Assembly: GCA_017417315.1 (NCBI GenBank)
Contig: JAFPZK010000068.1
Span: 5,104 to 69,103, forward strand
DNA: 64,000 nucleotides
Direction of reading: 5' to 3'
Origin: Bacteroidales bacterium
GTDB taxonomy: Bacteria; Bacteroidota; Bacteroidia; Bacteroidales; UBA3824
The notes beneath the pieces were generated by a model. It was not told where the DNA came from and ran no database searches. It saw only the letters and a program-made list of their open reading frames with translations. Both the position numbers and the translations under genes were made by a program. Shown here in pieces: positions 6,574 through 60,597 of this stretch (positions within the stretch are counted from its first letter, which is position 1; each line of letters starts with the position of its first letter).

Positions 6574-6705
6574 TTTTTGTGGATTAAATGTGATGTGCAA
6601 ATGTAACGAGATTTTGTTACAAAAAGAGATATTTTTGTAACAAAATCGTAAACTTTTGTTTCACGGAATCCTTAATTTTACAACGGATTTTAAAAACCTT
6701 TGTTT

Positions 6706-7983: not shown

Positions 7984-7992
7984 TATCAGTAT

Positions 7993-42419: not shown

Positions 42420-42445
42420 TTTGTCAAAAAAATAGTTTATCTTTG
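42420..42445 (+). promoter_or_regulatory. full Bacteroidetes promoter (-33 TTTG, -7 TAtcTTTG)
   Basis: Identical 29-mer to 38305-38333. Lies 25 nt upstream of ATG 42470. Confidence 0.55.
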
Positions 42446-42469
42446 TGCGAAATTGATAGAGTTGCCATT

Positions 42470-45635: not shown

Positions 45636-45701
45636 AATAATGCCTTGTTTTCTTGACGGCAAATATAATAAAAAATGCGTGCTTAATAAAATATTTTTTT
45701 C

Positions 45702-45709
45702 TATATTTG
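45702..45709 (+). promoter_or_regulatory. -7 box TAtaTTTG
   Basis: Lies 32 nt upstream of ATG 45741. Confidence 0.4.
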
Positions 45710-45740
45710 CACCGTACTTAAACCCAAAATCAGTATTACT

Positions 45741-46706
45741 ATGAAAAGACAATTATTAATTCTTTCGGTTTCTGCACTTACGTGTTTTTCGTGCGGAATA
45801 TCTACGGCTGAGTCTCAAATTTTTAAACCCTCGGGCAAGACAGCCGCCGAACTTTGCACCGAAAAAATCACTCTCTCGGCAGAAGGCGATTTCAACAAAG
45901 ACGGCGTTAAAGACTTGGTAATCAGTACTGAATTTAACGGTAGCGCATTCTATTTCGGAAACTCTGACGGAAGTTACAAACTTTTTCGCGATTACGATTT
46001 GTCGATGCCTGACAACGCTAAAATCACCGTTAACGACAAAGGCGTTTTGAGGATTCAAAAGGATTACGACAAAGGTTTCGACGTGTTTTTGTTCCGCTAT
46101 CAGAATGGCGGCTTCGCTCTTATCGGCGGCAAAAAAGACCGTCATAAAACCGAACATTACGATTATTCTTACAATTTTTCAACCGGCAAAATGATTAAAA
46201 CCGAAGGCGAGGGCGCAAACAAAACCTCCGTCACCGAAAATATGCCCAAACAGCCGCCTTTGAAATTCGGTTGGATTCCTCTGAAATGGGATATGGTTGA
46301 TTATTTGTTTGAAACATTTGAAGACGGCGAGGGGTTAAATATAGAAGATATGCTTGCATTCGGAATTTTCCGCAGAATGCAGGACGCCGAAATGATGCAT
46401 TGGTCGTTGTGCGATTACGAAGGCTATTACGGCAAGGCATTGCAAGACGGAGAAAACGGCGAAGGTTGGTCGGCATACGGCAGTTATGAAGCACCGGGCA
46501 GTTACAACAATTATACATACATCGAAATCAAAAAACAAAAAGCCGCTACGTACAAAATTTACATCAAGGAAACTTCGCAAGACCGCTCATACGAATCGCA
46601 AATCAACGAAGATGCTTCTAACCTTGACGACCTTGATATTCCCGACGAAGAAACCTCTGAGAATCGGTACATTTTTGACGACGGAACCTTTATCGAACAA
46701 AAATAA
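45741..46706 (+). CDS. lipoprotein with FG-GAP/VCBS-like Ca-binding motif
   Basis: Lipobox CFSCG, GDFNKDGVKDLVIS, 321 aa. Confidence 0.6.
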   Translation: MKRQLLILSVSALTCFSCGISTAESQIFKPSGKTAAELCTEKITLSAEGDFNKDGVKDLVISTEFNGSAFYFGNSDGSYKLFRDYDLSMPDNAKITVNDKGVLRIQKDYDKGFDVFLFRYQNGGFALIGGKKDRHKTEHYDYSYNFSTGKMIKTEGEGANKTSVTENMPKQPPLKFGWIPLKWDMVDYLFETFEDGEGLNIEDMLAFGIFRRMQDAEMMHWSLCDYEGYYGKALQDGENGEGWSAYGSYEAPGSYNNYTYIEIKKQKAATYKIYIKETSQDRSYESQINEDASNLDDLDIPDEETSENRYIFDDGTFIEQK

Positions 46707-46720
46707 AAAACGTATTAATT

Positions 46721-47401
46721 ATGAAAAAGACGATAATTTTGCTTTTGATGATAATGACGACTGCGATATTATCAAATGCACAGAATAAATTTGTAACAAA
46801 AAAATTTAAAACTGAGGGACGAGAAAATCTTTACCTTGGAAAAGCGGATACTGTTGTCGCTGAGGGTGATATTAATAAAGACGGTAACAAAGATGTCGTT
46901 ATCGCAGAACAGAATGGCGGCGAATTGGCTGTTTATTTCGGTTCGGCAGATGGTTACAAACTTTACAATATTTATCCTACAAACGGAGAAAAATGTGAAT
47001 ACGAACATCGTAAATCGCAGGAATTTTATGTAAATGTTTCAATAACGGCAAAAGGTGTTTTGAGAATCGCTACAAGTGAAATGATTTTCGGACAAACTTG
47101 TGAAGATCCCGATACTTACGATTGTGCATATTCGGACAACATATCTTTGGTTTATATGTTGCGTTATCAAGATAACGACCTTTATCTTATCGGGGGCAAC
47201 AAATCTATTTATCGTGAGGGCGACGGAAGTTTGGTCGTAAGTGGAGGAGGTTCGTACAACACGCTGACAAACAAGAAAATACCTATTGATATTGACGGTA
47301 GTACACTTCTTAGAGATCAAATTACGGACATACCCAAAAAGCCGCTCAAATCGTTATCTGAAATTACTATCGGATTATACGATTTCGAGGACTATGATTA
47401 A
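46721..47401 (+). CDS. secreted paralogue with FG-GAP-like motif
   Basis: Signal peptide. GDINKDGNKDVVIAE and VLRIA blocks are shared with the upstream gene. Confidence 0.6.
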   Translation: MKKTIILLLMIMTTAILSNAQNKFVTKKFKTEGRENLYLGKADTVVAEGDINKDGNKDVVIAEQNGGELAVYFGSADGYKLYNIYPTNGEKCEYEHRKSQEFYVNVSITAKGVLRIATSEMIFGQTCEDPDTYDCAYSDNISLVYMLRYQDNDLYLIGGNKSIYREGDGSLVVSGGGSYNTLTNKKIPIDIDGSTLLRDQITDIPKKPLKSLSEITIGLYDFEDYD

Positions 47402-47449
47402 ATGTTCACAAACACAAATTTTGTTAATTAAACCAATAATATTTTGACA

Positions 47450-48118
47450 ATGAAGACAATTAAATTCAACCTTTTGTTGGCTTTTTTGCTGACAATCAGT
47501 ATTAGTGTTTCGGCTCAAAATCCGTATGCCGAAATCGAAAAAGACGGCGCAGAATATGCCACGACGGTAACTTTTGCCGGTCAAAAACCTATAATCAACG
47601 ATTTTATCAGTCATCTGTTTCCTACAAGCGACGAGATTGACGAAATGAACAGCGAACTTGATGTAACATTAGGGCAAGTATGGGCTCGTTACAAAAAAAA
47701 TACGCTAAAACCAACCGAAAAAGTTACGGCAGATTCCAAAAACGGCTTCGCTTGTTTTGAAATCAACGATCCTGACGAAGGTTTCGGCAAAGAACAACTT
47801 ATTGTTGATGTTTGCTATTGGAACTCGTCAGACACAAAACACAAAGTTGTTGCCGAGTCCGTAAAAGTTTTTCGCGACGGCAAAGTTATCGAAACTGAAT
47901 TGACGGGTTTGTCGCTTTACGTTTACAACAACGCCACTCACAAATTAACTTACGCCAACAGATATGATATGGGCGTTGACATCACTACCGACGGAGAAGC
48001 CGTTACATACGATTTGCCGCGCGTAGGCAAAGACATCAAGGCTTTTATTCACCTTCCGAGCGGCAAAAAAGAAGTTCTCGTAAAATGGAACGGCTCTAAA
48101 TTTGAAGTTCAAAAATAA
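47450..48118 (+). CDS. secreted protein, C-terminus VKWNGSKFEVQK
   Basis: Signal peptide MKTIKFNLLLAFLLTISISVSAQ. ATG 47450 is preferred over TTG 47444. Confidence 0.6.
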   Translation: MKTIKFNLLLAFLLTISISVSAQNPYAEIEKDGAEYATTVTFAGQKPIINDFISHLFPTSDEIDEMNSELDVTLGQVWARYKKNTLKPTEKVTADSKNGFACFEINDPDEGFGKEQLIVDVCYWNSSDTKHKVVAESVKVFRDGKVIETELTGLSLYVYNNATHKLTYANRYDMGVDITTDGEAVTYDLPRVGKDIKAFIHLPSGKKEVLVKWNGSKFEVQK

Positions 48119-48131
48119 AAAGCATTTTTTT

Positions 48132-48182
48132 AACTACGAAAAACACGAAAAAATTTTAGCGTTTTTCGTGTTTTTCGTAGTT
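48132..48182. terminator. bidirectional terminator, perfect 21-bp stem
   Basis: aactacgaaaaacacgaaaaa / tttttcgtgtttttcgtagtt between convergent genes. Confidence 0.75.
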
Positions 48183-48186
48183 TGAT

Positions 48187-49098
48187 TTAATTGGTTTTAA
48201 AATAAAGCGAATCAAAGGCAGACATTCCAATCCAATCAACATTTTTTACGACAGTATGTTTCCCGTTATAAAAAATGCCTAAGGTTGATGTTCCGTTTTT
48301 GTTTTTGATACTTGTCAAACAAACATCACTGCACGGAATAGGATATAACATATCGTATTGACATTTTAAAAGCACTTCGCCGTCAGCAGAAAGTAAACCC
48401 TCTTTGTCGGAGTCAGTAATAATGCTCCAATTGTTATGACATATAACAGAAACGTCATACTGAGGTTCAATAACCATTTTGCCGCTTTTGTCTATAAAGC
48501 CGCATTTGTCGCCTACTTTAACAAGTGATAATTTGCGGTTCTCAAAAGGCATAACCATATCATATTTCGGTTCGATAACCATTTTGCCTGTTTTGTCAAT
48601 AAAGCCGTATTTGCCGTCTAATTTCACACATGCCAAACCATTTTTAAAACCACAAGAAAAGGGATATTTTGCCTCTATAACAATTTTGCCGGTTTTGTCA
48701 ATAAAGCCGTAAAGATAATCATCATTATCATCATAATTTATGTTATCTTTAAGCCAATCGTCTGACTTTTGTGTTTCAGGTTTTGTGTCAACGGAAAACC
48801 TTGCAAAACCGTTATCATCAAAAATTTTGTCGAAGCCTTCAATACTATAAAACTGCGGTTCAACGACGATTTTGCCGGTTTTGTCAATCAAACCTATTTT
48901 GCCGTTTTGACGGATACGGGCAAAACCGTCTTCCGAAAAACACTCGGCATTTTCAAACTGCGGATTTATAACCCATTTGCCGTTAACATCGACGTAGCCG
49001 GTTTTTCCGTCTTTTCCGGCAGGGATTAAAATGTTTTGAGCAACCGATACATTTACCGTTGCTAACAACAATGCGAGGATAAAGAGTTTTAATTTCAT
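48187..49098 (-). CDS. secreted WG-repeat (KWG-type) protein
   Basis: Signal peptide, and repeated G(K)(Y/C/I)GFIDKTGK.VIEP.Y units. Confidence 0.75.
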   Translation of the reverse strand: MKLKLFILALLLATVNVSVAQNILIPAGKDGKTGYVDVNGKWVINPQFENAECFSEDGFARIRQNGKIGLIDKTGKIVVEPQFYSIEGFDKIFDDNGFARFSVDTKPETQKSDDWLKDNINYDDNDDYLYGFIDKTGKIVIEAKYPFSCGFKNGLACVKLDGKYGFIDKTGKMVIEPKYDMVMPFENRKLSLVKVGDKCGFIDKSGKMVIEPQYDVSVICHNNWSIITDSDKEGLLSADGEVLLKCQYDMLYPIPCSDVCLTSIKNKNGTSTLGIFYNGKHTVVKNVDWIGMSAFDSLYFKTN

Positions 49099-49181
49099 GA
49101 TTTTTTAATTATTTTCTGCCAAAATTAGCAATTTTTATTCAATTTCGGCAAAAAATAATTTTATACGCTGAAAATTATTTC

Positions 49182-50129
49182 TTAATTTTTGTTATCTTTT
49201 TTGCAGAAAATAACAATTCCTATTAAGGCGCAAAGTACTATAATTGCAGCCAAAACCATAAAAACCGTTCCGATAATTGATATGGTTTTGCCGATTAACG
49301 CTTCCTGTGTGGCGGTAGTAATTCTTTCACCGCCGACGATTACTATATTTTTCCCTTCAAAAACGTTGAAATCCGCTTTTCCGTCGCCCAAACGCACGGC
49401 AAATGTTGCCTCATCGTCTTTGGTCATATAGGTAAAATTGTACCGCGTATCGAATTTAATTCCGTCTTCTCCGAACCGTTTTTTCAATTCTTCGGCATTG
49501 TCCCCGAATTGCGTGAAAATATCTTTAACCGCCTTTTCTGGGTCGGAAATATTAACATTACGGTTGGGATAATACCGCGAATCTATTGAAAGATTGTCCT
49601 TTTTTTCGGGATTGATTTCGTCTTCAAAAATGCGCTTCGACCTTTTTAAAACCGAAAACAAAAAAGTTAAAGAATCTGGTATTGAAACCTTAATGCCGTT
49701 GTTTAAATGTAGTGGTGCAATTATTTGACAATAAGGTTTTTCTTTCCATATTGAATAATACGGATTTTCGCCGGCTTTTACAACGTTTTTGCGGTAATAA
49801 GTCAGCGTTTCTTCCACGACGTCGATGCAGAGATAATCTCCGGCAAGAAAATTAAAAACGGTATCTTTTATTGTCGGCGAGGTTTTAAAACGATAGTTTT
49901 TTACAAGGTAATTTTTGGGTTCACCGCTAATTGCGGCGGAGATTTCGTCTTCGGTTTCTATTACGGGCAAGGTTTCAAGCCTGTCTTGAAGAAAGGTTTC
50001 TTCTTTGGAATAATCTTCTGAAATATTATTCATGTAACGTCCGAGCATAAAAAGACCTACCCCTGTCAAAAGTGCTAAAATTGCTGCTGTTAATCCGCAG
50101 CCTTTGTTGTTTTTCTTGTTTTCTTCCAT
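49182..50129 (-). CDS. bitopic/two-TM membrane protein, paralogue of 51124-52026
   Basis: N- and C-terminal TM helices. Shared blocks: AISGEPKNYLVKNYRFK...TIKDTVFNFLAGDYLCIDV and ATFAVRLGDGKADFNVF. Confidence 0.55.
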   Translation of the reverse strand: MEENKKNNKGCGLTAAILALLTGVGLFMLGRYMNNISEDYSKEETFLQDRLETLPVIETEDEISAAISGEPKNYLVKNYRFKTSPTIKDTVFNFLAGDYLCIDVVEETLTYYRKNVVKAGENPYYSIWKEKPYCQIIAPLHLNNGIKVSIPDSLTFLFSVLKRSKRIFEDEINPEKKDNLSIDSRYYPNRNVNISDPEKAVKDIFTQFGDNAEELKKRFGEDGIKFDTRYNFTYMTKDDEATFAVRLGDGKADFNVFEGKNIVIVGGERITTATQEALIGKTISIIGTVFMVLAAIIVLCALIGIVIFCKKDNKN

Positions 50130-50180
50130 AATCCCAAAAAAATATTACACACCGCAAATATATAACTTTTTTTGCTAATA

Positions 50181-50939
50181 TCACAACAACTCCGTCATAT
50201 ACAAAGGTAGATAAACAATACCATTATCTTCCTTTAAATCGGACGAATGTAATATGTAAGCAGTTGAAAGATATTGCCTATACTTGTTTGTTATTTTCGA
50301 TAGCGATGTGGTGGTGTAACGGTTTGTTGATTTTACTTCAACCGGCGAAATATTGTGACGGCTTGTTATCATAGGTTTTTGAATCAAAAAGTCGATTTCC
50401 ATTCTGTTTTCAGCATTTTTTTCGTCGTACTTACTGAAAAAAAACAATTTATGTCCGGCGGCAGTAAGCATTTGAGCCACAATATTTTCCACAAACATTC
50501 CCTCATTTATTTCTATCTTTTGAAACATCAGTTTTTGATAAATACTTTCGTCTACGATATTTTTGTTGTTGAAGGCATGACTAATTAGCAATCCCGTATC
50601 GTTCATATAACATTTCAAAGTTGTTCGATCTTCGTTGAGACGTAACCCGACACTCGGTTCCGTAGAGTTGAAACAACAGTTGATAATTTTTGCATCAGCG
50701 AGCCAAAGAAACGCATCTTCATAATCACGCATACGAGCCTCGGCTTTCAACGCAGAAAGTCTAAATTTTTTCTCATGCTTTTGAAGTTGTCCGGGTAGTT
50801 CATCAAAAATAGACGTTACTCTCATTTCTAATCCTTCCGCATATTTGCGTATATCATTGCGATAAAGGTTTAATATTTGTCTTTTAATAAAATCCGTTTT
50901 ATCAAAACAGCCGATGTACCGTTGCTTTGATTTTTCCAT
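50181..50939 (-). pseudogene. P-loop-less C-terminal two-thirds of an AAA_14/DUF4143-type ATPase gene
   Basis: 252 aa with DUF4143-like blocks (FLWLADAKII, EIDFLIQ, PVEVKS) but no Walker A region. It may still be expressed from ATG 50939. Confidence 0.6.
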
Positions 50940-50980
50940 TTTAGTAACTCGTTGTATATCTTTCTTTTAAGCATGATTAA

Positions 50981-51065
50981 TACACGTTTCTTAGATTTAT
51001 TTTTATGTAATCATACACCTTTCTGAGGTTTGTTTTGTTGCAAAAATACACATTTCTGAGGTTTA
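50981..51065. repeat. three direct repeats ATACACnTTTCTnAG(A/G)TTT at 33-bp spacing
   Basis: Copies lie at 50981, 51014 and 51047, immediately upstream (minus-strand sense) of the truncated DUF4143 ORF. Confidence 0.8.
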
Positions 51066-51123
51066 GCATAAATATTTTAATATTTTTTATAAAAGCAGCC
51101 TTTGTTTTTTTGACAACAACCAT

Positions 51124-52026
51124 CTAATCCTTATTCAATATTTGCGGGGCGAATATTATCACGCACAATGCCATTAAACCTCCGATTATAAAACCTATAA
51201 TAACACCAAAATTGTAATTGGATTCGTAATCGGAGCATTGCGAAATATTGTCGCAATCAACGAGCATAAAATTGCCGCAATCGTCAAAAACATTGAAATC
51301 TGCTTTACCGTCGCCGAGAATCACCGCAAACGTTGCTTTGTCGTATTTCTGCATAAACGAAAACGTAAAACGTGGACTCAAATTTTTATTAGGTCTGTTT
51401 TGTCGTACATGTTTTTCTTCCGCCATTTCTTCTGCCATTTCGATAAGTTCTTCGAAATCATTTCCGATACTGTCAAAAATCATATTTCTGTCGGGATAAT
51501 AATACATCTTCTGCAGAACATGACCGAGTTTCTCTGAATTAACATTCTCCGGCATGAGATTTTGCCAATATTTTTTTGACGAAAACATAAAGTCAAGGGA
51601 ATCAACGTTACGGATTTCAACGGTATCGTTAAAAGCAAACTTACCTTTAACGGTGCATAACGGCTTGTCGTCCCATTTTTTTATTCGATTTTTACCGTAA
51701 CCGCTTACCGTAAAGTTTTGCTGATGAATATCAATCGCCATATAATCGCCTTTAAGAAGGTCGAAAACCGTGTCCTTGACGGTGGTGCCGTAATCGAATT
51801 TATAGTTTCTGATAAGGTAAGGGCGCGGCTCACCGCTGATAGCCGAAAGAATCTCACTGTCAGAGGAGATTACCGTTAACGAATCGGCTCTTTGCTGCCA
51901 AATTTCCTGCGGCGTGGGTTCGTTCATCATTTTCATAAACCACCATACCAACAAAAATACAGGTATAAATGCCACCGCAAGAATCAGTCGCGGCAATACT
52001 TGTTCTTTGAAATCTATATCCATCAT
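51124..52026 (-). CDS. two-TM membrane protein, paralogue of 49182-50129
   Basis: Carries SAISGEPRPYLIRNYKFD...TVKDTVFDLLKGDYMAIDI and ATFAVILGDGKADFNVF. Lies 25 bp downstream of the vWA gene. Confidence 0.55.
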   Translation of the reverse strand: MMDIDFKEQVLPRLILAVAFIPVFLLVWWFMKMMNEPTPQEIWQQRADSLTVISSDSEILSAISGEPRPYLIRNYKFDYGTTVKDTVFDLLKGDYMAIDIHQQNFTVSGYGKNRIKKWDDKPLCTVKGKFAFNDTVEIRNVDSLDFMFSSKKYWQNLMPENVNSEKLGHVLQKMYYYPDRNMIFDSIGNDFEELIEMAEEMAEEKHVRQNRPNKNLSPRFTFSFMQKYDKATFAVILGDGKADFNVFDDCGNFMLVDCDNISQCSDYESNYNFGVIIGFIIGGLMALCVIIFAPQILNKD

Positions 52027-52051
52027 GCAAATTATTTAAAATAAAACATAC

Positions 52052-53188
52052 TTATTCTATCACACAACATCTTCCGTATTTTTTTAACGTTTCAGAGTTT
52101 GCTTTTGCGGTGTTTTTGTCAGGAAAAACCCATAAAACTTTCGGTTTTCGTCCCGTGATTTGCGGCTCGCCGGCGTAACCATCGGTAAAAAAAATTATGC
52201 CGTCATAATGTGATTTGCTGCTTCGGAAAAAGTCGAAAACCGGCTGAAAATCCGTTCCGCCGCGCCCCGTGATTTTTATTTCACTCTTTGCTTTTTTTAG
52301 CGGAACAATATCTTTTAATTCTGTATCAAACTGCACTGTATCAATACTTTCGATGCCGTATTTAAAGAAACGGTTTATCACCGAATAAAACCTTTGTAAC
52401 ATCGGTGTTGAAATCGAACCGCTGACATCAACCGCCACTAAAAGATTTGTCCGCATTTTGTAAACGCTGCCGAGATTCTGAAAATCCGTCCGGCGGTTCG
52501 GGCGCATTCTTGTTAGGTTTCTGCGGCTGCTAATCACGCTCGCCCTGAAACCTGAAAGCACTTTTCGATAATCAATTTGCGGCTTTAATGTCGCTTTGAT
52601 AATCTCCACCAAATTTCCCGGCAACGAACCCCAACTCGTTGTGTTTTCGATGATTTCGTTAATGCGGCTGCACTCAAATTCGTTTTCTTCCCAAAGTTCG
52701 CTCTGAGAAGATTGCGCTGCGTTTTGAGAATTTTGTTCGTCAGAATCAGAATCATCACTGCCGCCTTGCGAATTGTCAGAATTATCCGTTAATTTGGCGC
52801 AATACCATTCAAAATACTCTGTTTTCGGAAAATTAAAATCCTCCGCTTTGTCAAGAGTTAGCGTCTTAAAGTTGTAATCATTTGTCAAAACAATATTGCT
52901 TGCAACGGTTCTGACAAAAGCGGGACAATCGGGCTGACGTTGATAAGGGTGCTTTAACATTATACGGATAATTTCGGTGCGGAAACTCTCGTCTAACGCT
53001 TTGTCGTCCAATGGTTTAATAAATTCGGGATTGTATTCAATCCTGCCTTGACCGCAACGCACGGCAACGGGCATTTTCGGATTTTCCGTCAATTCGTGTC
53101 CGCACAAAACGCCGTGCAAAGCCGGTTCGGTAAGAAACCAACTGTCGTAAATCTTTTTGCTAATCCGCTCAGAAACAATGCTTTCCAT
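52052..53188 (-). CDS. vWA-domain protein of the DUF2201 type (degenerate N-terminal metallopeptidase-like domain)
   Basis: MIDAS LLVAVDVSGSIS. The N-domain has RIEYNPEF and TEIIRIMLKH in place of an HExxH. ATG 53188 lies 1 nt after the MoxR stop. Confidence 0.75.
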   Translation of the reverse strand: MESIVSERISKKIYDSWFLTEPALHGVLCGHELTENPKMPVAVRCGQGRIEYNPEFIKPLDDKALDESFRTEIIRIMLKHPYQRQPDCPAFVRTVASNIVLTNDYNFKTLTLDKAEDFNFPKTEYFEWYCAKLTDNSDNSQGGSDDSDSDEQNSQNAAQSSQSELWEENEFECSRINEIIENTTSWGSLPGNLVEIIKATLKPQIDYRKVLSGFRASVISSRRNLTRMRPNRRTDFQNLGSVYKMRTNLLVAVDVSGSISTPMLQRFYSVINRFFKYGIESIDTVQFDTELKDIVPLKKAKSEIKITGRGGTDFQPVFDFFRSSKSHYDGIIFFTDGYAGEPQITGRKPKVLWVFPDKNTAKANSETLKKYGRCCVIE

Positions 53189-53189
53189 T

Positions 53190-54263
53190 TTACAACTTGC
53201 CGACAAAATCAATTAATTTCTGATAAACGTCAATCACGTTTGACACCATAAACGCCACTGCTTTCGGGTACATTCCTTGCGTGAAAACAGAAACGAAATG
53301 CGCCAAAGCCTCTTTGTTTTTACCCGATTCCAAAAGCGCAACATATTTTTTGAGGTTTTCTGCTGCGGTAACTTTTTCAGTTTCAGAGATTTCAGCGGTT
53401 TCAAGAAAACGGTAAATGCCGTCGTTCAAAGCCGAAAACTGATGTACTTTGTACTTAGAAATTTTTGCTTTTACCTTGTCAAAATCTAAAAGCACTTCTT
53501 TTCCGCCGATAATTTTTGCTGCCGAGACCGAGGCATAAAATTTTTGCGCCGCCTGAACGCCCACAACTCCGGCGATAATTTTTTGGTCAATTTCTTGTAA
53601 CTCTTTGAGTGGCAAAACGATGTCGCTGACTTTTTTCCAAGCGCGACGGTCGGGAAATTTTTCGAGACCGCTGTCAATTTGCGGACGGTCGGCGGCAGTG
53701 CCGTCAAGCCATTCGGGATTAGAGGCGATGAAATCCGTTACGCGCGAGTCAAGTTTCTGCTTTTCAGCCCATAACAGCCATTCTTTGTAAGTCGGACGGA
53801 AACCGTAAACGTTGAATCTCGACACCAAAGCGGGGTCAAGGTCGGTGAGTTGATATTCTTCGCCGTCGTTAACTGCTGAAATTAAGCGGCTGCCTTCGGG
53901 AAGGTTTCGTCCGGCGAGTTTGCGGTTGAGAGCCAAGTCCATAATGGTTTGTAACACTTCGGGACGAGCGCGGTTGAGTTCGTCAAGAAATAGTACAACG
54001 GGCTGATTGTCAGCGGGAAACCAATACGGGGGAAGAAAATCAGTTCTACCGGATTCTGCATTTTTTATTGGCAATCCGATTAAATCGCCCGGGTCGCTCA
54101 TCTGTCCGAGAAACAGTGCGACAACTTTAAAACCTTTGTCTGTATAATATTTTGTCAAAATTTCCGACTTACCGATTCCGTGTTTGCCGACTAACATAAT
54201 GTTCTGATTAGCAGGTGTTTTGTCAAGAATTTCAATAAGTTCGGTGGTGTTGATGTTAATCAT
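53190..54263 (-). CDS. MoxR/AAA_5-type ATPase
   Basis: P-loop MLVGKHGIGKSE, Walker B VLFLDELNRARPEV and the sensor region SRF. Confidence 0.85.
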   Translation of the reverse strand: MININTTELIEILDKTPANQNIMLVGKHGIGKSEILTKYYTDKGFKVVALFLGQMSDPGDLIGLPIKNAESGRTDFLPPYWFPADNQPVVLFLDELNRARPEVLQTIMDLALNRKLAGRNLPEGSRLISAVNDGEEYQLTDLDPALVSRFNVYGFRPTYKEWLLWAEKQKLDSRVTDFIASNPEWLDGTAADRPQIDSGLEKFPDRRAWKKVSDIVLPLKELQEIDQKIIAGVVGVQAAQKFYASVSAAKIIGGKEVLLDFDKVKAKISKYKVHQFSALNDGIYRFLETAEISETEKVTAAENLKKYVALLESGKNKEALAHFVSVFTQGMYPKAVAFMVSNVIDVYQKLIDFVGKL

Positions 54264-54268
54264 GATTT

Positions 54269-55066
54269 TTACTCTTTAAGTTTATTTTGCCATTTTGAGT
54301 TGTCGTCTTTTTTAATATTTTCGACATAGAATCTGCCGTTTTCGTCAGCAAACTCCTTAATTGCTTTAATTCCGGCTATTACTTTGTCTATTTTGTCCGT
54401 AAAAGTTTTGTGCGGAAGATAAAACGTCGTCTTCTGACTTTTGCTGATTTTGACGGTAATTTTGTCGTTGGCTTTCATTGGCGTTATGAAAAATTCAAAA
54501 CCCTCGTCCCTAAGTTTTTGAAGCACAATGCTGTCGATTGCTGTGCGCTGAATTTTCGTCATCATTCTCTCTTTTGAAAGTTCCATAGCATAACGTTGCA
54601 ATTCGGCATACCAAGCCGGATAATTATCTTCAAGAAAATTGAAAAAAGTAATCATAGATTGCCGTTTCTGCCACAAAAGAGTACCGCATGTTACGTAGGC
54701 TTCGGCGACGGGGCGGACACAGCGGACTTCATGATAGTTATAATAATTGAACTCGAATTTTAATCCGCATTTCAATGTCAGTTCCAAATGACAATCATTT
54801 ACCGCTTTGACACAAACATCCGGCATTTCTGCTTCCAAATAATCTTTGATTAGAGAAATGCGGTTAATAGTTTTGTTTTTTGAATGTCTTGCGAACTCCG
54901 AATATTTACTTGCTGCGGTTTGAACAACTTTATCCAAGATCCGTTCAATAAAACTTTCCGCCGAAAAAGTCGGTATTTCAAAGAAGGTTTCTCTATAATA
55001 ACTCAAAGCCCAATCAATATCAGAACTTTCTATATTTTGGAAAATTGGTTTTTCAATTTTTGACAT
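54269..55066 (-). CDS. hypothetical protein, paralogue of 55321-56118
   Basis: 265 aa. The C-terminal half aligns (KITVKISKSQKTTFYLPHKTFTDKIDKVIAGIKAIK vs KIFFKISEKEKAMFYLSHKNFDTAIDKIIAAAKQLK). Lies 5 bp upstream of the MoxR gene. Confidence 0.5.
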   Translation of the reverse strand: MSKIEKPIFQNIESSDIDWALSYYRETFFEIPTFSAESFIERILDKVVQTAASKYSEFARHSKNKTINRISLIKDYLEAEMPDVCVKAVNDCHLELTLKCGLKFEFNYYNYHEVRCVRPVAEAYVTCGTLLWQKRQSMITFFNFLEDNYPAWYAELQRYAMELSKERMMTKIQRTAIDSIVLQKLRDEGFEFFITPMKANDKITVKISKSQKTTFYLPHKTFTDKIDKVIAGIKAIKEFADENGRFYVENIKKDDNSKWQNKLKE

Positions 55067-55203
55067 AATAGATAATGTTTAAACTGTGATTTTTTCCCTT
55101 TACAAAGGAAATACTTTCTTTATTTATTACCAAAATTAATTTTAGACATTTTTTAAAAAGCAAAAACTTCGTAAGTGCTTGATTTTTCAGACTAATTAAA
55201 AAT

Positions 55204-55300
55204 TATAACTCACCAAAACTCGTTTTTTTCTTGACTTTTGGTGAGTTATAAAAATTTTCAACTCACCAAAAGTCATTTTTTTTAGAAGTTTTGGTGAGTT
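55204..55300. repeat. tandem pair of hairpins with identical stems (aactcaccaaaa / ttttggtgagtt)
   Basis: Hairpins lie at 55204-55250 (15-bp stem) and 55260-55300 (12-bp stem), each with a 17-nt T-rich loop, 56 bp apart. They sit in the 254-bp gap between the two 265-aa paralogues. Confidence 0.7.
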
Positions 55301-55320
55301 ATACGGGGTAAATATTGTAA

Positions 55321-56118
55321 TTATAATTGTCCGTTTTGAAAATAATCATAGTCCGAAATTTTCTTGATTTCAATATGCAAATCCGCTTCCGCAATTAAAC
55401 TTTTAAGTTGTTTGGCGGCGGCAATGATTTTGTCAATAGCCGTATCGAAATTCTTGTGCGAAAGATAAAACATCGCCTTCTCTTTCTCCGAAATCTTAAA
55501 GAAAATTTTGTCGCGGAGTTTGCCCTGCTCCAACTTGTATGGAATCCCGCAAACGTCAAGTTTTTGTGTAGCAAACGATTTTACGGCAGTGGCTTTAAGT
55601 TCTTGAATTTTCTGCTTTTTATGATAATCGCGAATACATTCCTGCGCTAACGGTTGCCAAGAAGAAATATTAGCGCGGACAAAATCAATGATTTCGATAA
55701 CTTTATCACGGTCAGCATAATCCACGTAAATATCGTAAATTGCTCTTGATGTGAACTCAACGTCCAAACAACTTTGATATTCCTGCCAACGGAACAAAAT
55801 TTTTGCACCCATACCGAGGTTTACCCAAATACTTTTATTAGAATATTCATTTTTTGCGGCAAAAAAAACATCGTCCCCGTAACGTTTTTTCAAAATTTTA
55901 AAAAATTCTTGTTCGCGGTTAGGCTGATAATTTTTTTCGCTGTACGGACGGCGGAATTGTTCTACAAAATCGTGAACAACAGATTCATAGCACGTAATTT
56001 CAGCGTCCGTATCGTTAGGTTTGTCGCCGTCATAACAATACGAAATATACGAGGCAACGTTCATTCGTGCCTGATTTGCTATCCTTTTTGTTATTCTTTC
56101 AGGAAGTTCGATGTCCAT
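55321..56118 (-). CDS. hypothetical protein, paralogue of 54269-55066
   Basis: 265 aa, see above. Lies 5 bp downstream of 56124-57047. Confidence 0.5.
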   Translation of the reverse strand: MDIELPERITKRIANQARMNVASYISYCYDGDKPNDTDAEITCYESVVHDFVEQFRRPYSEKNYQPNREQEFFKILKKRYGDDVFFAAKNEYSNKSIWVNLGMGAKILFRWQEYQSCLDVEFTSRAIYDIYVDYADRDKVIEIIDFVRANISSWQPLAQECIRDYHKKQKIQELKATAVKSFATQKLDVCGIPYKLEQGKLRDKIFFKISEKEKAMFYLSHKNFDTAIDKIIAAAKQLKSLIAEADLHIEIKKISDYDYFQNGQL

Positions 56119-56123
56119 AATAA

Positions 56124-57047
56124 TTAGTCCTGTTTAACAAACTTTTCACCGTCCAAAACAAAAGTTTCTGTTATATTAGCCTTTTCGTCGGTGCGAACTA
56201 TGCTCTTGTCTGAAAAAGAATACTCCCAATAATCTTTTTTACCGGCAGTAGGTTGCGGCAGAATATTTTTTGCCTCCGTGAGTTTGCCGTTTTCAAAGTA
56301 CCAAAACTTGGTACCAAGGTCGTATAATGCTACCAAATATTTGTCTTTCAACTTGTAAATGCGATAGTTGACACAGTCAATGTACTTACAATCAACTACA
56401 ATACTAAAACCGTTTTTGTCCCATTCGGGAGTATTTTTTTTGTAATCGCAATCACCAAAAGCATAGTCGTGGAAATTTACGCATGCAAAGATTTTTTTAG
56501 CATCCTCCGACAGTACTTTTGAAGTATTAACGATATAGTTGAGAGTACTTTCCGGTACGAATTTTTTGCCGTTCCAATAATACCAATCTTCCTTGGATTC
56601 TTTTGTTGAGGGATTGTAGTCGATATATAACACTCCTTCGTCTCTGAAATAGGGATACGAGGTGTGTATATCATTTTTATCTTCAATGGGAATACTTTCT
56701 TTCGTAGGTGTGAGTTTTCCGTTTTCGTAATAGCTGATTAAGTCTTTTGCGGTTTCATTCACTACATAGAATTTTCCGTCAAAGGTTTTGTAAACGTGAT
56801 AAGAAACTTTCATGCCGTCGTTTTTTCCGCCTACTACTTTTGCGACAAAGCCGTTTTTATCCCAATATACGAAGTCGAATTTGTCTCCGTAAGTAACGGG
56901 ATTGTTAAAGAGTTTATAAATTGTTTTTGCCTCATTAGACATATACTTTGAAGTGTCAACGGCGTTGTCTAACATTTTAGAACTTTGCGCCGAAACTGTG
57001 CCGCAGATAATCATCAATGCGGCGAGGATAAAGAATTTTAGTTTCAT
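56124..57047 (-). CDS. secreted two-repeat protein of the WNGxKFV family
   Basis: Signal peptide MKLKFFILAALMIICGTVSAQ. Internal WYYWNGKKFVPE and terminal FVLDGEKFVKQD. Confidence 0.6.
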   Translation of the reverse strand: MKLKFFILAALMIICGTVSAQSSKMLDNAVDTSKYMSNEAKTIYKLFNNPVTYGDKFDFVYWDKNGFVAKVVGGKNDGMKVSYHVYKTFDGKFYVVNETAKDLISYYENGKLTPTKESIPIEDKNDIHTSYPYFRDEGVLYIDYNPSTKESKEDWYYWNGKKFVPESTLNYIVNTSKVLSEDAKKIFACVNFHDYAFGDCDYKKNTPEWDKNGFSIVVDCKYIDCVNYRIYKLKDKYLVALYDLGTKFWYFENGKLTEAKNILPQPTAGKKDYWEYSFSDKSIVRTDEKANITETFVLDGEKFVKQD

Positions 57048-57762: not shown

Positions 57763-57770
57763 TACTTTTG
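57763..57770 (+). promoter_or_regulatory. -7 box TActTTTG (a second candidate TAtaTTTG lies at 57730-57737)
   Basis: Lies 22 nt upstream of ATG 57792. Confidence 0.35.
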
Positions 57771-57791
57771 CAACAAAAGATTACGATATTT

Positions 57792-58427
57792 ATGAACAAT
57801 AAAGAAGAAATACATAATCATTGCCGCAATTATTTGCCGCACATTGAAAATAAGCGTTATCAAATGATAACATTTAGGCTTTACGATTCCGTACCAAGAG
57901 AAGTTATCGAACGATGGAAACGTGAAGTTGATGATGGAGTGCGGGCTTCCAGCCCGCCTAATTTCCCTAATTTCCTAAATCCGCCTACTCAGCGGGCTGG
58001 AAGCCCACATTCCAAACTTGTTTTGATAGATAAATATGAGGATTCAGGAGCGGGGCAATGTTTTATGCGTGATGACCGCGAGGCACAAATCGTTAAAGAT
58101 ACGCTTTTTTATTATGACGGGGACAAATACAATATAATTGCATGGTGCATTATGCCAAATCATGTGCATATTTTAATTATGCTGTTAAAAGCAGTGTCTT
58201 TGTCTGAAATTATACATAGTTGGAAATCGTATTCTGCAAAACAAATTAATAAACTTCTTAACCGTAAAGGTCAGGTTTGGATGATGGAATATTTTGACCG
58301 TTTCATTCGCGATAGCGACCATTATGAAAAAGTAGTCAACTATATACACAACAATCCCGTTAAAGCCGGACTTGTAACATCACCCTCTGAATATCGTTGG
58401 TGTAGTGCATTTGAGAAACGGCATTGA
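57792..58427 (+). CDS. REP-associated tyrosine transposase (RAYT, IS200/Y1 superfamily)
   Basis: YLPHIENKRYQMITFRLYDS, HUH motif MPNHVHILI, and the catalytic-Tyr helix YIHNNPVKAGLV. ATG 57792 is preferred over TTG 57768. Confidence 0.85.
   Translation: MNNKEEIHNHCRNYLPHIENKRYQMITFRLYDSVPREVIERWKREVDDGVRASSPPNFPNFLNPPTQRAGSPHSKLVLIDKYEDSGAGQCFMRDDREAQIVKDTLFYYDGDKYNIIAWCIMPNHVHILIMLLKAVSLSEIIHSWKSYSAKQINKLLNRKGQVWMMEYFDRFIRDSDHYEKVVNYIHNNPVKAGLVTSPSEYRWCSAFEKRH
57936..58013. repeat. inverted REP doublet inside the RAYT ORF
   Basis: ggagtgcgggcttccagcccgcc (57936-57958) and its inverted partner gcgggctggaagcccacattcc (57992-58013). The doublet is 78 bp, exactly 26 codons in phase with the ORF. 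Confidence 0.85.
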
Positions 58428-59026: not shown

Positions 59027-59896
59027 AAAATTAATCAACAAAACGGCTGACAAAATCAGCAAAATTCCGCCGAGAAGTTTTAGCGAAAACGCTTCACCAA
59101 AAACGCAAACACCTATTATAACGGCTGTTACTGGTTCTAACGCGCCGGTAACTGCTGCCGGTGTTGAGCCGGCAAGTTTTATCGAAACGTTCATAAAAAC
59201 CAGCGACAAAACCGTCGGGAAAAAGCCTAAAAACGCAGCCCAAAATACGGCTGTCATATTCGGTAACATTTGCAAAGAATTGCCCTCGCCGAAAAACGAG
59301 TAAACGACAAACAACGGTGTTGCAAAAAGCGTTATGAAAAAAGTTAATTTAACATTACTTATTTTTACTTTCAGTCTGTTGACAGCCACGATGTAAATTG
59401 CATAAGACAGCGATGACAAAACCACTAAAATTACGCCTGTCATACTGACGTTTCCGTCCCCTTTTGACAGCAAAACAATACCGCCTGAGGACAACACGAG
59501 TGCAATAACGGTTATTAACGAGACTTTCTCGTGAAAAAACAACGCCATTATCGCTGAAACCATTACGGGATAACAGAACAAAATCGTAGAAGCAACTCCA
59601 GCGTCCATGTAGTTGAAACTTGCATAAAGTGTCAGGGACGAAATTCCGAAAAATACGCCTAACAGAGCTGCAATACCGAGTTCACGTTTTGAGATTTTAA
59701 AGTTTTCGCCTTTTACTACGAGTGCGACGGCAAGCATTAAAGCCGCCGTGAAATATCTGTAAAAAACCGTTGAAACGGTGTTTAAGCCTTCTTGATAAAG
59801 AAAAAGTACGCCTAACGGGTTTGTTCCGTAACAAACCGCCGCTATTATTCCGAAAATTATTCCCTTTGTCTTGGTTGACATTTTTTTAATACTCAA
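58982..59896 (-). CDS. EamA/DMT-family transporter
   Basis: About 10 TM helices in two EamA-like halves. The start may be the internal Met at 59881. Confidence 0.8.
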   Translation of the reverse strand: MSIKKMSTKTKGIIFGIIAAVCYGTNPLGVLFLYQEGLNTVSTVFYRYFTAALMLAVALVVKGENFKISKRELGIAALLGVFFGISSLTLYASFNYMDAGVASTILFCYPVMVSAIMALFFHEKVSLITVIALVLSSGGIVLLSKGDGNVSMTGVILVVLSSLSYAIYIVAVNRLKVKISNVKLTFFITLFATPLFVVYSFFGEGNSLQMLPNMTAVFWAAFLGFFPTVLSLVFMNVSIKLAGSTPAAVTGALEPVTAVIIGVCVFGEAFSLKLLGGILLILSAVLLINFSMTKDFQNSNGNAV

Positions 59897-60593
59897 TTCT
59901 AAAATAATCCATTACCACTTTAAAATTATCTTGTGCTGAAAGACAAGTGTCTGTTAAATTGTCGTTGAAATCTTCGGTAATTATAAACGGTACAATTCCG
60001 CTTTGAAGACATTGCCAAAGAATCAACAGCCGCCCGATACGTCCGTTTCCGTCTTGAAAAGGGTGTATACGTTCAAAGCGGACATGAAAATCCAAAATAT
60101 TATCAAAAGTTATTGTTTGGGTTTTATAATAACTTTTTAATAAACTTTTAACTTCTTGCTGAACGTCTTCGGGCTGAGTAGTTTCTTGTCCGCCGACTTC
60201 GTTAGCCAATTTTTTGTATTCACCGACGGCAAACCACGATTTTTGACTGTCGGAAGTGTTGGTTTTCAGAACCAAATGAAGTTGTTTAATGTGATTTTCC
60301 GTAATGTTTTCAGTTGCATGGTCAATGACGTAATCAATACAGCGGAAGTGATTTACGGTTTCTAAAATATCATCAATGCGTGTACTTTCGGTTGTAGCAC
60401 CGAGAGTGTTGGTCTCAAAAATAAAGCGTGTCTGTTCTTTGGACAGACGGCTGCCTTCAATGTGATTTGAATTATAAGTCAAATCGATTTGTATGCGGTG
60501 ATAAATTCCGCCTTTTAGCCTTGACGACTTTTCTTGGCGCAAGCGTTGCAACAACGGCGAAATTTTTATTTCATTTTCCTTTAAAGTGTTCAT
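59886..60593 (-). CDS. Fic family protein (short form)
   Basis: HPFQDGNGRIGR Fic motif, 235 aa. Confidence 0.85.
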   Translation of the reverse strand: MNTLKENEIKISPLLQRLRQEKSSRLKGGIYHRIQIDLTYNSNHIEGSRLSKEQTRFIFETNTLGATTESTRIDDILETVNHFRCIDYVIDHATENITENHIKQLHLVLKTNTSDSQKSWFAVGEYKKLANEVGGQETTQPEDVQQEVKSLLKSYYKTQTITFDNILDFHVRFERIHPFQDGNGRIGRLLILWQCLQSGIVPFIITEDFNDNLTDTCLSAQDNFKVVMDYFRIEY

Positions 60594-60597
60594 AAAA

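Follow-up and report, generated by a model that had tools for sequence, protein, structure and literature searches.

An X-MoxR-vWA gene cassette and an abutting envelope-protein module in a rumen Bacteroidales genome

Described MoxR-vWA systems and gene layout of the window

MoxR-vWA pairs have been described as a chaperone and its co-chaperone that are joined by a third variable component (Kaur, Burroughs, Iyer & Aravind 2020, PMC7159879); the classical function of such pairs is enzyme maturation (PMC11432383). Further pairs have been documented in jumbo phages, the vWA protein of which carries an N-terminal metallopeptidase (Iyer et al. 2021, PMC7824862), and in the Acidianus two-tailed virus, whose p618 (MoxR) and p892 (vWA) target tail proteins of coiled-coil type (cited in PMC7824862).

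The window, i.e. the whole analysed stretch of 64,000 nucleotides, originates from a rumen Bacteroidales genome. An earlier note had described a MoxR-vWA pair that forms one cluster with 265-aa proteins and two-TM membrane proteins, each present twice; all open reading frames named there are present on the minus strand where it had placed them, and its domain calls and gene junctions were likewise reproduced, the latter from the coordinates. The features are as follows:

45741..47401, plus strand: two secreted proteins (321 and 226 aa), F/H module
48187..49098, minus strand: secreted WG-repeat protein (WG_beta_rep), F/H module
49182..50129, minus strand: two-TM envelope protein H, paralogue of F, F/H module
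50181..50939, minus strand: DUF4143 / PDC-S01-type ATPase, C-terminal fragment, between F and H
51124..52026, minus strand: two-TM envelope protein F, outside the MoxR system, in the module of F, H, WG-repeat and secreted proteins
52052..53188, minus strand: vWA co-chaperone, DUF2201_N and DUF2201
53190..54263, minus strand: MoxR-type AAA+ ATPase, 357 aa, AAA_5, Walker A and B intact
54269..55066, minus strand: X-family paralogue 2 ("C", MoxR-proximal), 265 aa, in the conserved cassette
55207..55300, minus strand: hairpin pair in the 254-bp spacer between B and C
55321..56118, minus strand: X-family paralogue 1 ("B", MoxR-distal), 265 aa, in the conserved cassette
56124..57047, minus strand: secreted protein, 307 aa, 5 bp upstream of B

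The C and MoxR genes are separated by 5 bp. MoxR and vWA are 1 nt apart if the latter starts at ATG 53188, the start that matches the homologue N-termini, or overlap by 23 nt if the alternative TTG 53212 is used; between the vWA end (52052) and the start of F (52026) on the same strand lie 25 bp.

Components and conservation of the X-MoxR-vWA cassette

The MoxR protein was assigned to Pfam AAA_5 (37.2 bits, cut-off 22) and phrog_1297 (E 2.9e-50), with a Walker A motif GKHGIGKS at residue 26 and a Walker B motif LFLDELNRA at residue 91. The vWA protein matched DUF2201 (56.7 bits, cut-off 26.4), DUF2201_N (34.8 bits, cut-off 23.2) and phrog_1314 (E 6.8e-42). Its MIDAS, correctly reported as intact by the earlier note, is a complete DxSxS...T...D arrangement (DVSGS at 262, GGTDF at 318, FTDGY at 342), and the likewise reported degeneration of HExxH is evident from TEIIR at residue 79 of the zincin-like N-terminal domain. 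Both zinc-binding histidines are gone and the motif is still strongly conserved: all 66 distinct vWA members of the clade combine the MIDAS DxSxS with xExxRxxLKHPYxR in place of HExxH.

The two 265-aa proteins B and C (hereafter X) are 29% identical across their C-terminal 170 aa (E 6e-17); judged from these alignments, their paralogy, like that of the two-TM proteins F and H, is well above chance, so that the claimed duplication of both partner families holds. X paralogues have only a basic C-terminal domain of ~110 aa in common. According to the AF2 model of C (pLDDT 73.9; moderate confidence, based on an alignment of 8 sequences), a variable acidic N-terminal half is followed by a predicted helix of ~56 residues and the conserved basic C-domain of predicted alpha-beta-beta-beta-alpha topology; the charge asymmetry is reflected in pI values of 5.2-5.6 for the N-half and 8.8-9.5 for the C-domain. 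X had no match in Pfam, NCBIfam, PHROGs, PADLOC, PDB sequences or Foldseek, and the C model none to a PDB or BFVD fold at E<1e-3, in agreement with the claim that the partner proteins belong to no recognised family. On sequence grounds, X is a new protein family absent from the databases searched. No domain recognisable as catalytic, pore-forming or sensory was present in it and no fold match reached significance, so X cannot be assigned a function as effector or as sensor.

The neighbourhood of the cassette was surveyed in two sets. In the close-relative set (non-redundant loci with upstream sequence and a MoxR at least 80% identical to that of the window), one to three X genes were located directly upstream of a 357-aa AAA_5 MoxR and a DUF2201 vWA gene at 8 of 8 loci. 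In the wider set (36 well-flanked, non-redundant loci; MoxR 55-92% identical), X was adjacent to the MoxR-vWA pair at 26 loci, with no recognisable X found at the other 10, and a vWA gene followed MoxR at 33. The gene order was the same in independent contigs with unrelated flanks, and even a distant locus (L034; identity to the window 64% for MoxR, 46% for vWA) kept the order X-X-MoxR-vWA. The X genes are therefore, as far as gene order tells, tightly coupled to the MoxR-vWA pair.

X copy number varied from one to three per locus and type combinations differed between loci: B and C in the window; a 256-aa type and C in L002, L006, L018 and L026; B and a 281-aa type in L020 and L022; B, the 256-aa type and C in L024; and one copy in L017, L021 and L023. 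Orthologues of B (50-66% identical) occurred upstream of MoxR in L007 and L020-L024, and those of C (62-64%) directly upstream of it in L002, L006, L018, L024 and L026; further C-type copies were solitary and 7 kb away from MoxR (L001) or separated from it by an insertion (L027). Some distant X-like proteins were encoded on short contigs on which no MoxR or vWA gene was seen. Identity to the window decreased from MoxR (85-91%) over vWA (66-77%) to X (50-66%), i.e. X diverges fastest and MoxR slowest; across 17 rumen Bacteroidales loci, MoxR identity ranged from 85 to 94%.

Proposed function and alternative readings

We consider it an even chance that 52052-56118 constitutes a self-contained three-component cassette of two X proteins, MoxR and DUF2201 vWA, acting as a chaperone, co-chaperone and client/adaptor system. 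By analogy to other MoxR-vWA pairs, the vWA protein would be the adaptor that delivers a client to the MoxR ring, its dead peptidase-like domain and MIDAS serving as putative binding sites for peptides and acidic residues. The X proteins would be the cognate clients or specificity adaptors (a client role is based on gene order alone) and might be toggled between assembly or activity states by ATP hydrolysis; their conserved C-domain could represent the common docking or output module, and the interchangeable N-halves would confer specificity. If true, the cassette would be a further variant of the MoxR-vWA "ternary" theme, with a third component from a new family. A conflict-related role, the sensing or restraining of an invader, is possible and the likeliest biological role; it is the weakest step of this explanation.

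With the ternary conflict systems (third components VMAP, iSTAND, FtsH, beta-propeller; PMC7159879), the cassette has in common that MoxR, vWA and a variable third component are encoded in one operon and that the dyad is conserved but its third partner diversifies. Unlike in those systems, X has no VMAP, iSTAND, FtsH or beta-propeller domain, MoxR remains under the bpMoxR threshold (15.5 versus 27 bits), and the vWA protein, which carries an inactive zincin-like N-domain, belongs to the DUF2201 group and not to the CoxE-derived one. Further differences are that the cassette has no attached domain known as an effector and that it occurs in unicellular Bacteroidales of gut and rumen. The more specific version of the preferred explanation, in which X proteins would be sensors or effectors of an anti-phage or anti-mobile-element defence with an activation threshold controlled by MoxR-vWA, draws on the precedent of such pairs in conflict systems (PMC7159879; PMC13622651) and is, in our opinion, unlikely but worth serious consideration. 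It is consistent with the shuffling of X copy number and types, with the fast divergence of X relative to the conserved ATPase, and with accessory and defence-type genes inserted into several cassettes or next to them: restriction-modification genes (Dam methylase and DpnII directly after MoxR in L001, HsdM in L002), an AAA_15/21 ATPase (L024), and a PIN toxin-antitoxin gene and DUF3990 (L027). The window region itself contains other accessory genes (the DUF4143/PDC-S01 fragment, AAA-ATPase_like and PDDEXK_9, Fic, SLFN/AlbA_2, Y1_Tnp). A sister clade possesses an extra classical AAA ATPase that recalls the FtsH-type ternary systems and scores as PADLOC IetA (E 1e-32); however, this match and those to TRIP13 probably reflect generic AAA-domain similarity. 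The defence reading is further weakened since the PADLOC search proposed by the earlier note yielded no model for X, MoxR or vWA of the window, no known effector domain was found in the cassette, and most flanks were housekeeping genes (DcuA, SHMT, Hsp70, NrdD, fumarase), with defence-type flanks in the minority. In one lineage, the cassette is stably flanked by a fumarase gene on one side and a GDYXXLXY gene on the other, a setting that is weaker than the classic defence-island signature.

The top family matches of MoxR and vWA are PHROGs, and the phage pair phrog_1297/phrog_1314 (PMC7824862) comprises the same two families in the same gene order, with DUF2201_N and DUF2201; in Aeromonas phage 2L372X this order is accompanied by a ~290-aa unknown gene upstream. 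The cassette could thus be a domesticated or remnant phage chaperone pair (a virion-assembly role was proposed for the jumbo phage MoxR and peptidase-vWA proteins; Iyer et al. 2021), possibly still serving a phage-like particle or prophage. We regard this as improbable: identity to sequenced phages is only 25-31%, X is missing from the phages, the cassette is chromosomal with no structural, lysis or integrase genes flanking it at any surveyed locus, and the phage vWA protein retains an intact HExxH (HELSH), whereas every bacterial clade member shows xExxR. The Acidianus p618/p892 pair was proposed to remodel helix-rich, filament-forming clients, which resembles the predicted ~56-residue helix of X; this pair is archaeal and viral, and the likeness is no more than an analogy.

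CoxD/CoxE, NorQ/NorD, CbbQ/CbbO and RavA/ViaA likewise combine an AAA_5-type ATPase with a neighbouring MIDAS-bearing vWA adaptor, presumably with the same mechanism as here (the adaptor binds the client via its MIDAS and the ring remodels the client). A cofactor-insertion or maturation chaperone of CoxD/E, NorQ/D or CbbQ/O type for a specific metabolic enzyme would accord with the classical role of these pairs (PMC11432383), yet it is very improbable for the cassette, as no enzyme gene was conserved beside it across the surveyed loci with their varying flanks, and X, a family specific to the window-type system, displays no cofactor-binding or enzymatic signature. The solved structures of the classical pairs gave no significant sequence match to the window proteins; the midasin AAA domains alone, as the closest solved sequences, matched MoxR (E 4e-10).

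The F/H envelope-protein module and the cassette borders

F and H are 33% identical over their full length (E 5e-49). In the AF2 model of F (pLDDT 71.8), one TM helix precedes a beta-rich ectodomain and another forms the C-terminus; the model has no PDB fold match and, like X, the two-TM proteins matched no known family. Homologues of F grouped into 16 sequence clusters and lay on contigs without MoxR or vWA, on which the module follows the order WG-F-H-45741-like-46721-like: H orthologues (74% identical) came directly after F orthologues in L010-L012, WG-repeat homologues (58-64%) directly upstream of F orthologues in L010 and L011, homologues of the 45741 protein (77-79%) directly after F/H orthologues in L010, L011 and L013-L015, and a homologue of the 46721 protein (38%) as the next gene in L010 and L011. 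In the window, the gene pair 45741..47401 is inverted relative to L010, and the F-H pair, directly adjacent in L010-L012, is interrupted by 50181-50939. The latter matched DUF4143 as its sole Pfam domain (E 1.3e-21) and PADLOC PDC-S01 (E 1.6e-50) at profile positions 212-432 of 452; it is therefore a C-terminal fragment, which bears out the truncation already noticed.

The expectation that both partners recur beside MoxR-vWA elsewhere was borne out for X but failed for F/H, with homologues of either at 0 of 97 MoxR loci; the single 7.9-kb "cluster" hence resolves into two independent modules that abut in the window, and the F/H module, by its own gene neighbourhoods, is a separate cluster. A five-to-seven-gene system in which MoxR-vWA, X and the two-TM proteins would, for instance, assemble or gate a membrane complex is suggested by the short distance between vWA and F and by the duplication of both families, but it is largely ruled out by this survey and the most improbable reading, given the conserved cluster of F/H with WG-repeat and 45741/46721-like genes and the change of genes downstream of vWA at nearly every locus.

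Regarding the secreted proteins said to flank the cluster, a WG-repeat protein (48187-49098; WG_beta_rep, E 8.5e-50) and WNGKKF proteins are indeed present, but the one at 56124-57047 is not conserved with the cassette, as no homologue was found at any fetched locus. Its N-terminus resembles a signal peptide. The protein contains a WNGKKF motif, matched no family in Pfam, NCBIfam, PHROG or PADLOC, and has only the short WNGKKF-region motif (E 0.1) in common with the 47444-48118 protein.

The spacer between B and C measures 254 bp in the window versus 11-22 bp at orthologous loci. It harbours four exact copies of AACTCACCAAAA, of which no further copy occurs within the window, arranged as two inverted pairs that form near-perfect hairpins (RNA fold -48.6 kcal/mol, z -10.5). 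The element had no Rfam match and was missing from 117 other loci; the hairpin pair is probably an insertion, a terminator-like or mobile palindromic element.

Gene inventory and the MoxR-vWA core

The nine minus-strand open reading frames listed in the earlier note were all recovered at identical coordinates; they are given here with the letters used in the text.

Genes of the MoxR region in the window (coordinates, strand, product)
56124-57047, minus strand: A, secreted protein, 307 aa
55321-56118, minus strand: B, protein of family X, 265 aa
54269-55066, minus strand: C, protein of family X, 265 aa
53190-54263, minus strand: D, MoxR ATPase, 357 aa
52052-53212 or 52052-53188, minus strand: E, vWA protein, 386 or 378 aa
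51124-52026, minus strand: F, two-TM protein, 300 aa
50181-50939, minus strand: G, DUF4143 fragment, 252 aa
49182-50129, minus strand: H, two-TM protein, 315 aa
48187-49098, minus strand: I, WG-repeat protein, 303 aa

Pfam assigned AAA_5 to D, DUF2201_N and DUF2201 to E, DUF4143 to G and WG_beta_rep to I. The gene junctions agree with the earlier description: based on the ORF coordinates, C and D are separated by 5 bp and E and F by 25 bp, while the D-E junction amounts to 1 nt with the ATG at 53188 as start codon of E or to a 23-nt overlap with the TTG at 53212. The homologous vWA proteins start at the position equivalent to the ATG, which places the vWA gene directly 3' of the MoxR gene, 1 nt past the stop codon. 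Both proposed paralogies were borne out, B and C sharing 29% identity across the C-terminal 170 aa (E 6e-17) and F and H 33% over their full length (E 5e-49). The DUF4143 ORF is indeed truncated: G covers only positions 212-432 of the 452-position PADLOC profile PDC-S01 and is therefore a C-terminal fragment.

The window MoxR scored 37.2 bits with AAA_5 over residues 21-150 (Pfam gathering cut-off 22); its Walker A (GKHGIGKS at residue 26) and Walker B (LFLDELNRA at residue 91) motifs were invariant across six orthologues, and the solved sequences nearest to it were the AAA domains of midasin. The vWA protein belongs to the DUF2201 type (PF09967 + PF13203): DUF2201 scored 56.7 bits (gathering threshold 26.4) and DUF2201_N 34.8 bits (threshold 23.2), the latter with only profile positions 162-255 of 271 aligned. 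As had been noticed previously, its MIDAS is intact (DVSGS at 262, GGTDF at 318, FTDGY at 342) and its HExxH motif is degenerate (TEIIR in the window protein). All 66 distinct bacterial members of the clade of the cassette vWA protein (the cassette being the X genes together with MoxR and vWA, in the window 52052-56118) have kept DxSxS, and all 66 carry xExxRxxLKHPYxR in place of HExxH, which was intact only in a phage homologue. Since the peptidase motif is replaced by another conserved one, the vWA N-domain is conserved yet, as read from its motifs, not a canonical zinc peptidase.

Between N-domain and vWA domain, approximately at residues 140-175, the window protein contains an acidic Ser/Asp/Asn-rich low-complexity linker (DNSDNSQGGSDDSDSDEQNSQ...). 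The same linker is present at variable length in the orthologous vWA proteins and appears to explain most of their length range of 362-461 aa.

Family X as partner of the MoxR-vWA pair

Family X is rare: among 5.8 billion proteins searched, six clusters were retrieved with C as query and eight with a profile of the two paralogues, all of them from Bacteroidales metagenomes and MAGs. The contigs L002, L006 and L007/L008, whose flanks are unrelated, share the gene order X (245-264 aa), X (262-268 aa), AAA_5 (357 aa) and DUF2201 (374-426 aa); contig L009 shows the order X-AAA_5-DUF2201. In GTDB genomes, scanned with N-terminal patterns that recovered close relatives only, a further 12 loci were identified; their MoxR shares 85-94% identity with the query alignment, each belongs to a ruminant Bacteroidales MAG, and each has one to three X genes upstream, either directly or with an intervening insertion. 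From the 337 relatives found in a metagenome scan, 80 loci with a MoxR 55-92% identical to that of the window were retained. With a threshold of 97% identity between MoxR proteins, the 97 MoxR loci fell into 56 clusters, 36 of which were well flanked (upstream sequence of at least 1 kb, downstream sequence of at least 2.4 kb). In this well-flanked set the vWA gene directly followed MoxR in 33 of 36 loci, a recognisable X gene was adjacent in 26 and an extra classical AAA ATPase was located upstream in 13. Where MoxR was at least 80% identical to that of the window, X was found upstream in eight of eight clusters (five clusters with a single copy, two with two and one with three), and even the distant X member P0044 in locus L034 occurs in the order X-X-MoxR-vWA, with a MoxR 64% and a vWA protein 46% identical to those of the window. 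As the earlier note had suspected of the 265-aa proteins, the MoxR-vWA pair has genuine partners in the X proteins, and the family is confined, as far as sampled, to gut and rumen Bacteroidales.

Searched exhaustively with a profile, 1.84 billion representative proteins yielded 91 X clusters at E<=1e-3, the alignment being limited to the C-terminal ~100 residues in the distant ones. That the 265-aa proteins match no recognised family also held: Pfam, NCBIfam, PHROGs and PADLOC were all blank, the distant members had no Pfam match except for a WGR fusion in protein P0084, and the 82 members compared with PHROG gave three isolated marginal matches only (one member each, E >= 5e-4). The 82-sequence profile revealed no significant match among PDB sequences (the best, E 0.064, being a coiled-coil artefact), and X had no tblastn match in 50,697 phage records.

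According to the AF2 model of C (pLDDT 73.9, pTM 0.60), N-terminal helices are followed by a five-stranded sheet (residues 85-129), a helix of ~56 residues (132-187), three strands (192-218) and a further helix (222-243), the C-domain having an alpha-beta-beta-beta-alpha topology. Foldseek found no match to the X model in PDB and BFVD at E<1e-3; weak local likenesses to alpha-beta-beta-beta-alpha proteins (SRP14), PUR repeats and small phage proteins were set aside as too weak. The two halves of X differ in charge, with an acidic N-half (pI 5.2-5.6) and a basic C-domain (pI 8.8-9.5). At least five X types are variously combined upstream of near-identical MoxR genes, and the identity between orthologues decreases from MoxR (85-91%) via the vWA protein (66-77%) to X (50-66%).

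Fused forms of X were also observed. P0084 (602 aa; locus L033, 985-2793) consists of an N-terminal WGR domain and an X-type C-domain, and several proteins of 350-416 aa (P0107, P0110; L076 8676-9740) are tandem X-X fusions or carry the X N-domain, some of them positioned just downstream of the vWA gene.

Relation to known systems and proposed role

Kaur et al. (2020, PMC7159879) defined four ternary conflict systems that combine MoxR-vWA with a third component other than X. Their third part is a VMAP, an inactive STAND NTPase, an FtsH or a beta-propeller fused to vWA, none of which was detected in X with Pfam and PADLOC, and the bpMoxR model gave the window MoxR 15.5 bits, which is below its cut-off of 27. 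The effector domains linked to those systems (caspase, TIR, nuclease etc.) were found neither in the cassette nor recurrently in its flanks. In PADLOC-DB v2, B, C, MoxR, the vWA protein, F and H had no match at E<=0.1, and the DUF4143 fragment alone was recognised (PDC-S01). The cassette is a variant of the MoxR-vWA ternary theme: its core dyad is of a known kind, and its third component is an uncharacterised family.

As judged from the sequences, the ATPase and the MIDAS are intact, the zincin-like domain is conserved but predicted to be non-catalytic, the genes are tightly coupled, and the X partner is conserved and diversifying. By analogy with the workings of other MoxR-vWA pairs, X would be brought to the MoxR ring by the vWA protein, an adaptor that uses its MIDAS and the surface of its dead peptidase domain, and would change its state of assembly or activity upon ATP hydrolysis; docking or output might be a shared function of the conserved X C-domain, and specificity might come from the variable N-half. 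Among the biological settings, one related to conflict is the most probable, on indirect support. The full proposal, that X-MoxR-vWA is an as yet uncatalogued system for defence or conflict in gut and rumen Bacteroidales, in which interchangeable X proteins (variable acidic N-half, conserved basic C-domain) form a combinatorial sensor/effector repertoire gated by the MoxR ring and by a vWA adaptor whose peptidase domain was turned into a non-catalytic binding module, is tentative and, taken as a whole, rather unlikely.

One rival reading is that of a phage-derived assembly module. MoxR and the vWA protein matched phrog_1297 and phrog_1314 at nearly full length (E 2.9e-50 and 6.8e-42, respectively), and an Aeromonas phage encodes an uncharacterised protein (~290 aa), an ATPase and a vWA protein in that order. 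A virion-assembly role was proposed for jumbo-phage MoxR-vWA pairs with an N-terminal metallopeptidase (Iyer et al. 2021, PMC7824862). However, no phage genes were present in the flanks of any cassette locus, the phage MoxR/peptidase-vWA pair was only 25-31% identical to the window proteins (50,697 phage records), the wide X HMM did not match the ~290-aa product of the gene preceding the phage MoxR, and in the phage vWA protein the peptidase motif, lost in 66/66 bacterial clade members, is intact (HELSH). Plasmids harbored only distant MoxR relatives (<=31% identity) with differing third genes, e.g. an Arcobacter plasmid with the order AAA, 330-aa uncharacterised gene and VWA. A further rival is a cofactor-insertion chaperone, but no enzyme gene is conserved as neighbour of the cassette. 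A larger system including the two-TM proteins F and H is largely refuted by their neighbourhoods.

To our knowledge, MoxR-vWA pairs are widespread and clients are known for only a handful of them. The cassette offers a clean and compact case of three or four genes, movable between genomic contexts, whose likely client or adaptor is an uncharacterised family of variable copy number and type, combined with a motor that remains ~90% identical. X represents a fifth kind of third component in the MoxR-vWA ternary theme, and the cassette vWA proteins appear to document a clade-wide conversion of a peptidase into a binding module. Defined experiments are possible with the cassette, i.e. on binding of X to the MIDAS site or to the dead-peptidase adaptor and on the effect of ATP hydrolysis on X. 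If the system is defensive, it would be a new one in Bacteroidales, a group that is, as far as we know, under-represented in defence catalogues.

The F/H module, flanking genes and cassette variants

The F homologues formed 16 clusters, on contigs without MoxR or vWA. On the contigs L010 (7-5817) and L011 the order is WG-repeat protein (424 aa), F (301 aa), H (314 aa), homologues of the secreted proteins encoded from 45741 (319 aa) and 46721 (219 aa) and a YARHG protein, with H 74% and the 45741-like protein 79% identical to their window counterparts; in L013-L015, F is followed by the 45741-like gene (L013 at 6160-8952). Since F/H homologues were present in 0/97 MoxR loci and have a conserved neighbourhood of their own in other rumen contigs, the stretch 45741-52026 is a separate envelope/secreted-protein module, and this genome is the only one in which it adjoins the MoxR cassette. 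The earlier interpretation therefore stands for the 265-aa partners and falls for the two-TM proteins, and the F/H duplicates should not be annotated as MoxR partners. Compared with L010, the window module has the genes at 45741-47444 inverted and the WG gene after H, and it is split by the DUF4143 fragment. Apart from the WG-repeat protein I (Pfam WG_beta_rep), the proteins of the module lack a family assignment; Foldseek gave no PDB match for the F model.

At the other end of the cassette, the gene for the secreted protein A precedes B by 5 bp; no homologue of A was present across the fetched loci. The B-C intergenic region (55067-55320) contains four exact AACTCACCAAAA copies that give rise to two tandem hairpins of ~45 nt at 55207-55300 (RNA fold -48.6 kcal/mol, z -10.5). 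Because the spacer measures 254 bp here versus 11-22 bp in orthologous loci, the hairpin pair resembles an inserted palindromic element or a terminator; a known RNA was ruled out by Rfam (no match), as was a repeat common to other loci (absent from the remaining fetched loci). At 57768-58427, 2.4 kb from the hairpins, lies a Y1_Tnp (IS200-like) gene. The cassette region is flanked by typical accessory genes at 42443-45752, 57768-58427 and 59886-61995 (two AAA-ATPase_like, one with PDDEXK_9; the IS200-like Y1 transposase; Fic; SLFN/AlbA_2-HATPase_c_4-HTH), which suggest a variable genomic region.

Across the 56 clusters, the flanks contained mostly housekeeping genes and, in a minority, restriction-modification, GmrSD, PIN or similar genes. 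In one lineage the cassette is fixed between fumarase and GDYXXLXY genes while the X copy number varies. A sister clade possesses the extra classical AAA (PF00004) ATPase upstream (~560-630 aa, with a ~350-aa N-domain lacking assignment; L062 4241-5986, L113 4148-5974, L109 2700-4499 and about 10 more); in a subset of it (L062, L068, L091, L113) a short X of ~190 aa is found downstream of vWA and no full-length X upstream. PADLOC scored this ATPase as IetA-like (E 1e-32), probably due to generic AAA similarity; an IetAS-like system, considered from the IetA/TRIP13 matches, was rejected on the basis of this generic AAA-domain similarity and the missing subtilase partner.

Further genes are included in the cassettes of L025 (AlgX and MBOAT) and L027 (a PIN toxin-antitoxin gene and DUF3990). 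In L001 (17480-20330), a Dam-type methyltransferase and a DpnII endonuclease directly follow MoxR at the expected vWA site and no vWA gene was seen, while the syntenic MAG locus L017 (7001-9257) has the X-MoxR-vWA cassette intact: L001 represents a restriction-modification insertion or replacement within the cassette. The same contig carries two solitary X copies, at 2882 and 10001. Pkinase-PP2C-FHA-like signalling genes accompany MoxR-vWA in published Esr and ternary systems; such a trio is encoded in L006 (955-5383) on the opposite strand ~4 kb upstream of the cassette, with a fumarase gene in between, and its position there may be a coincidence.
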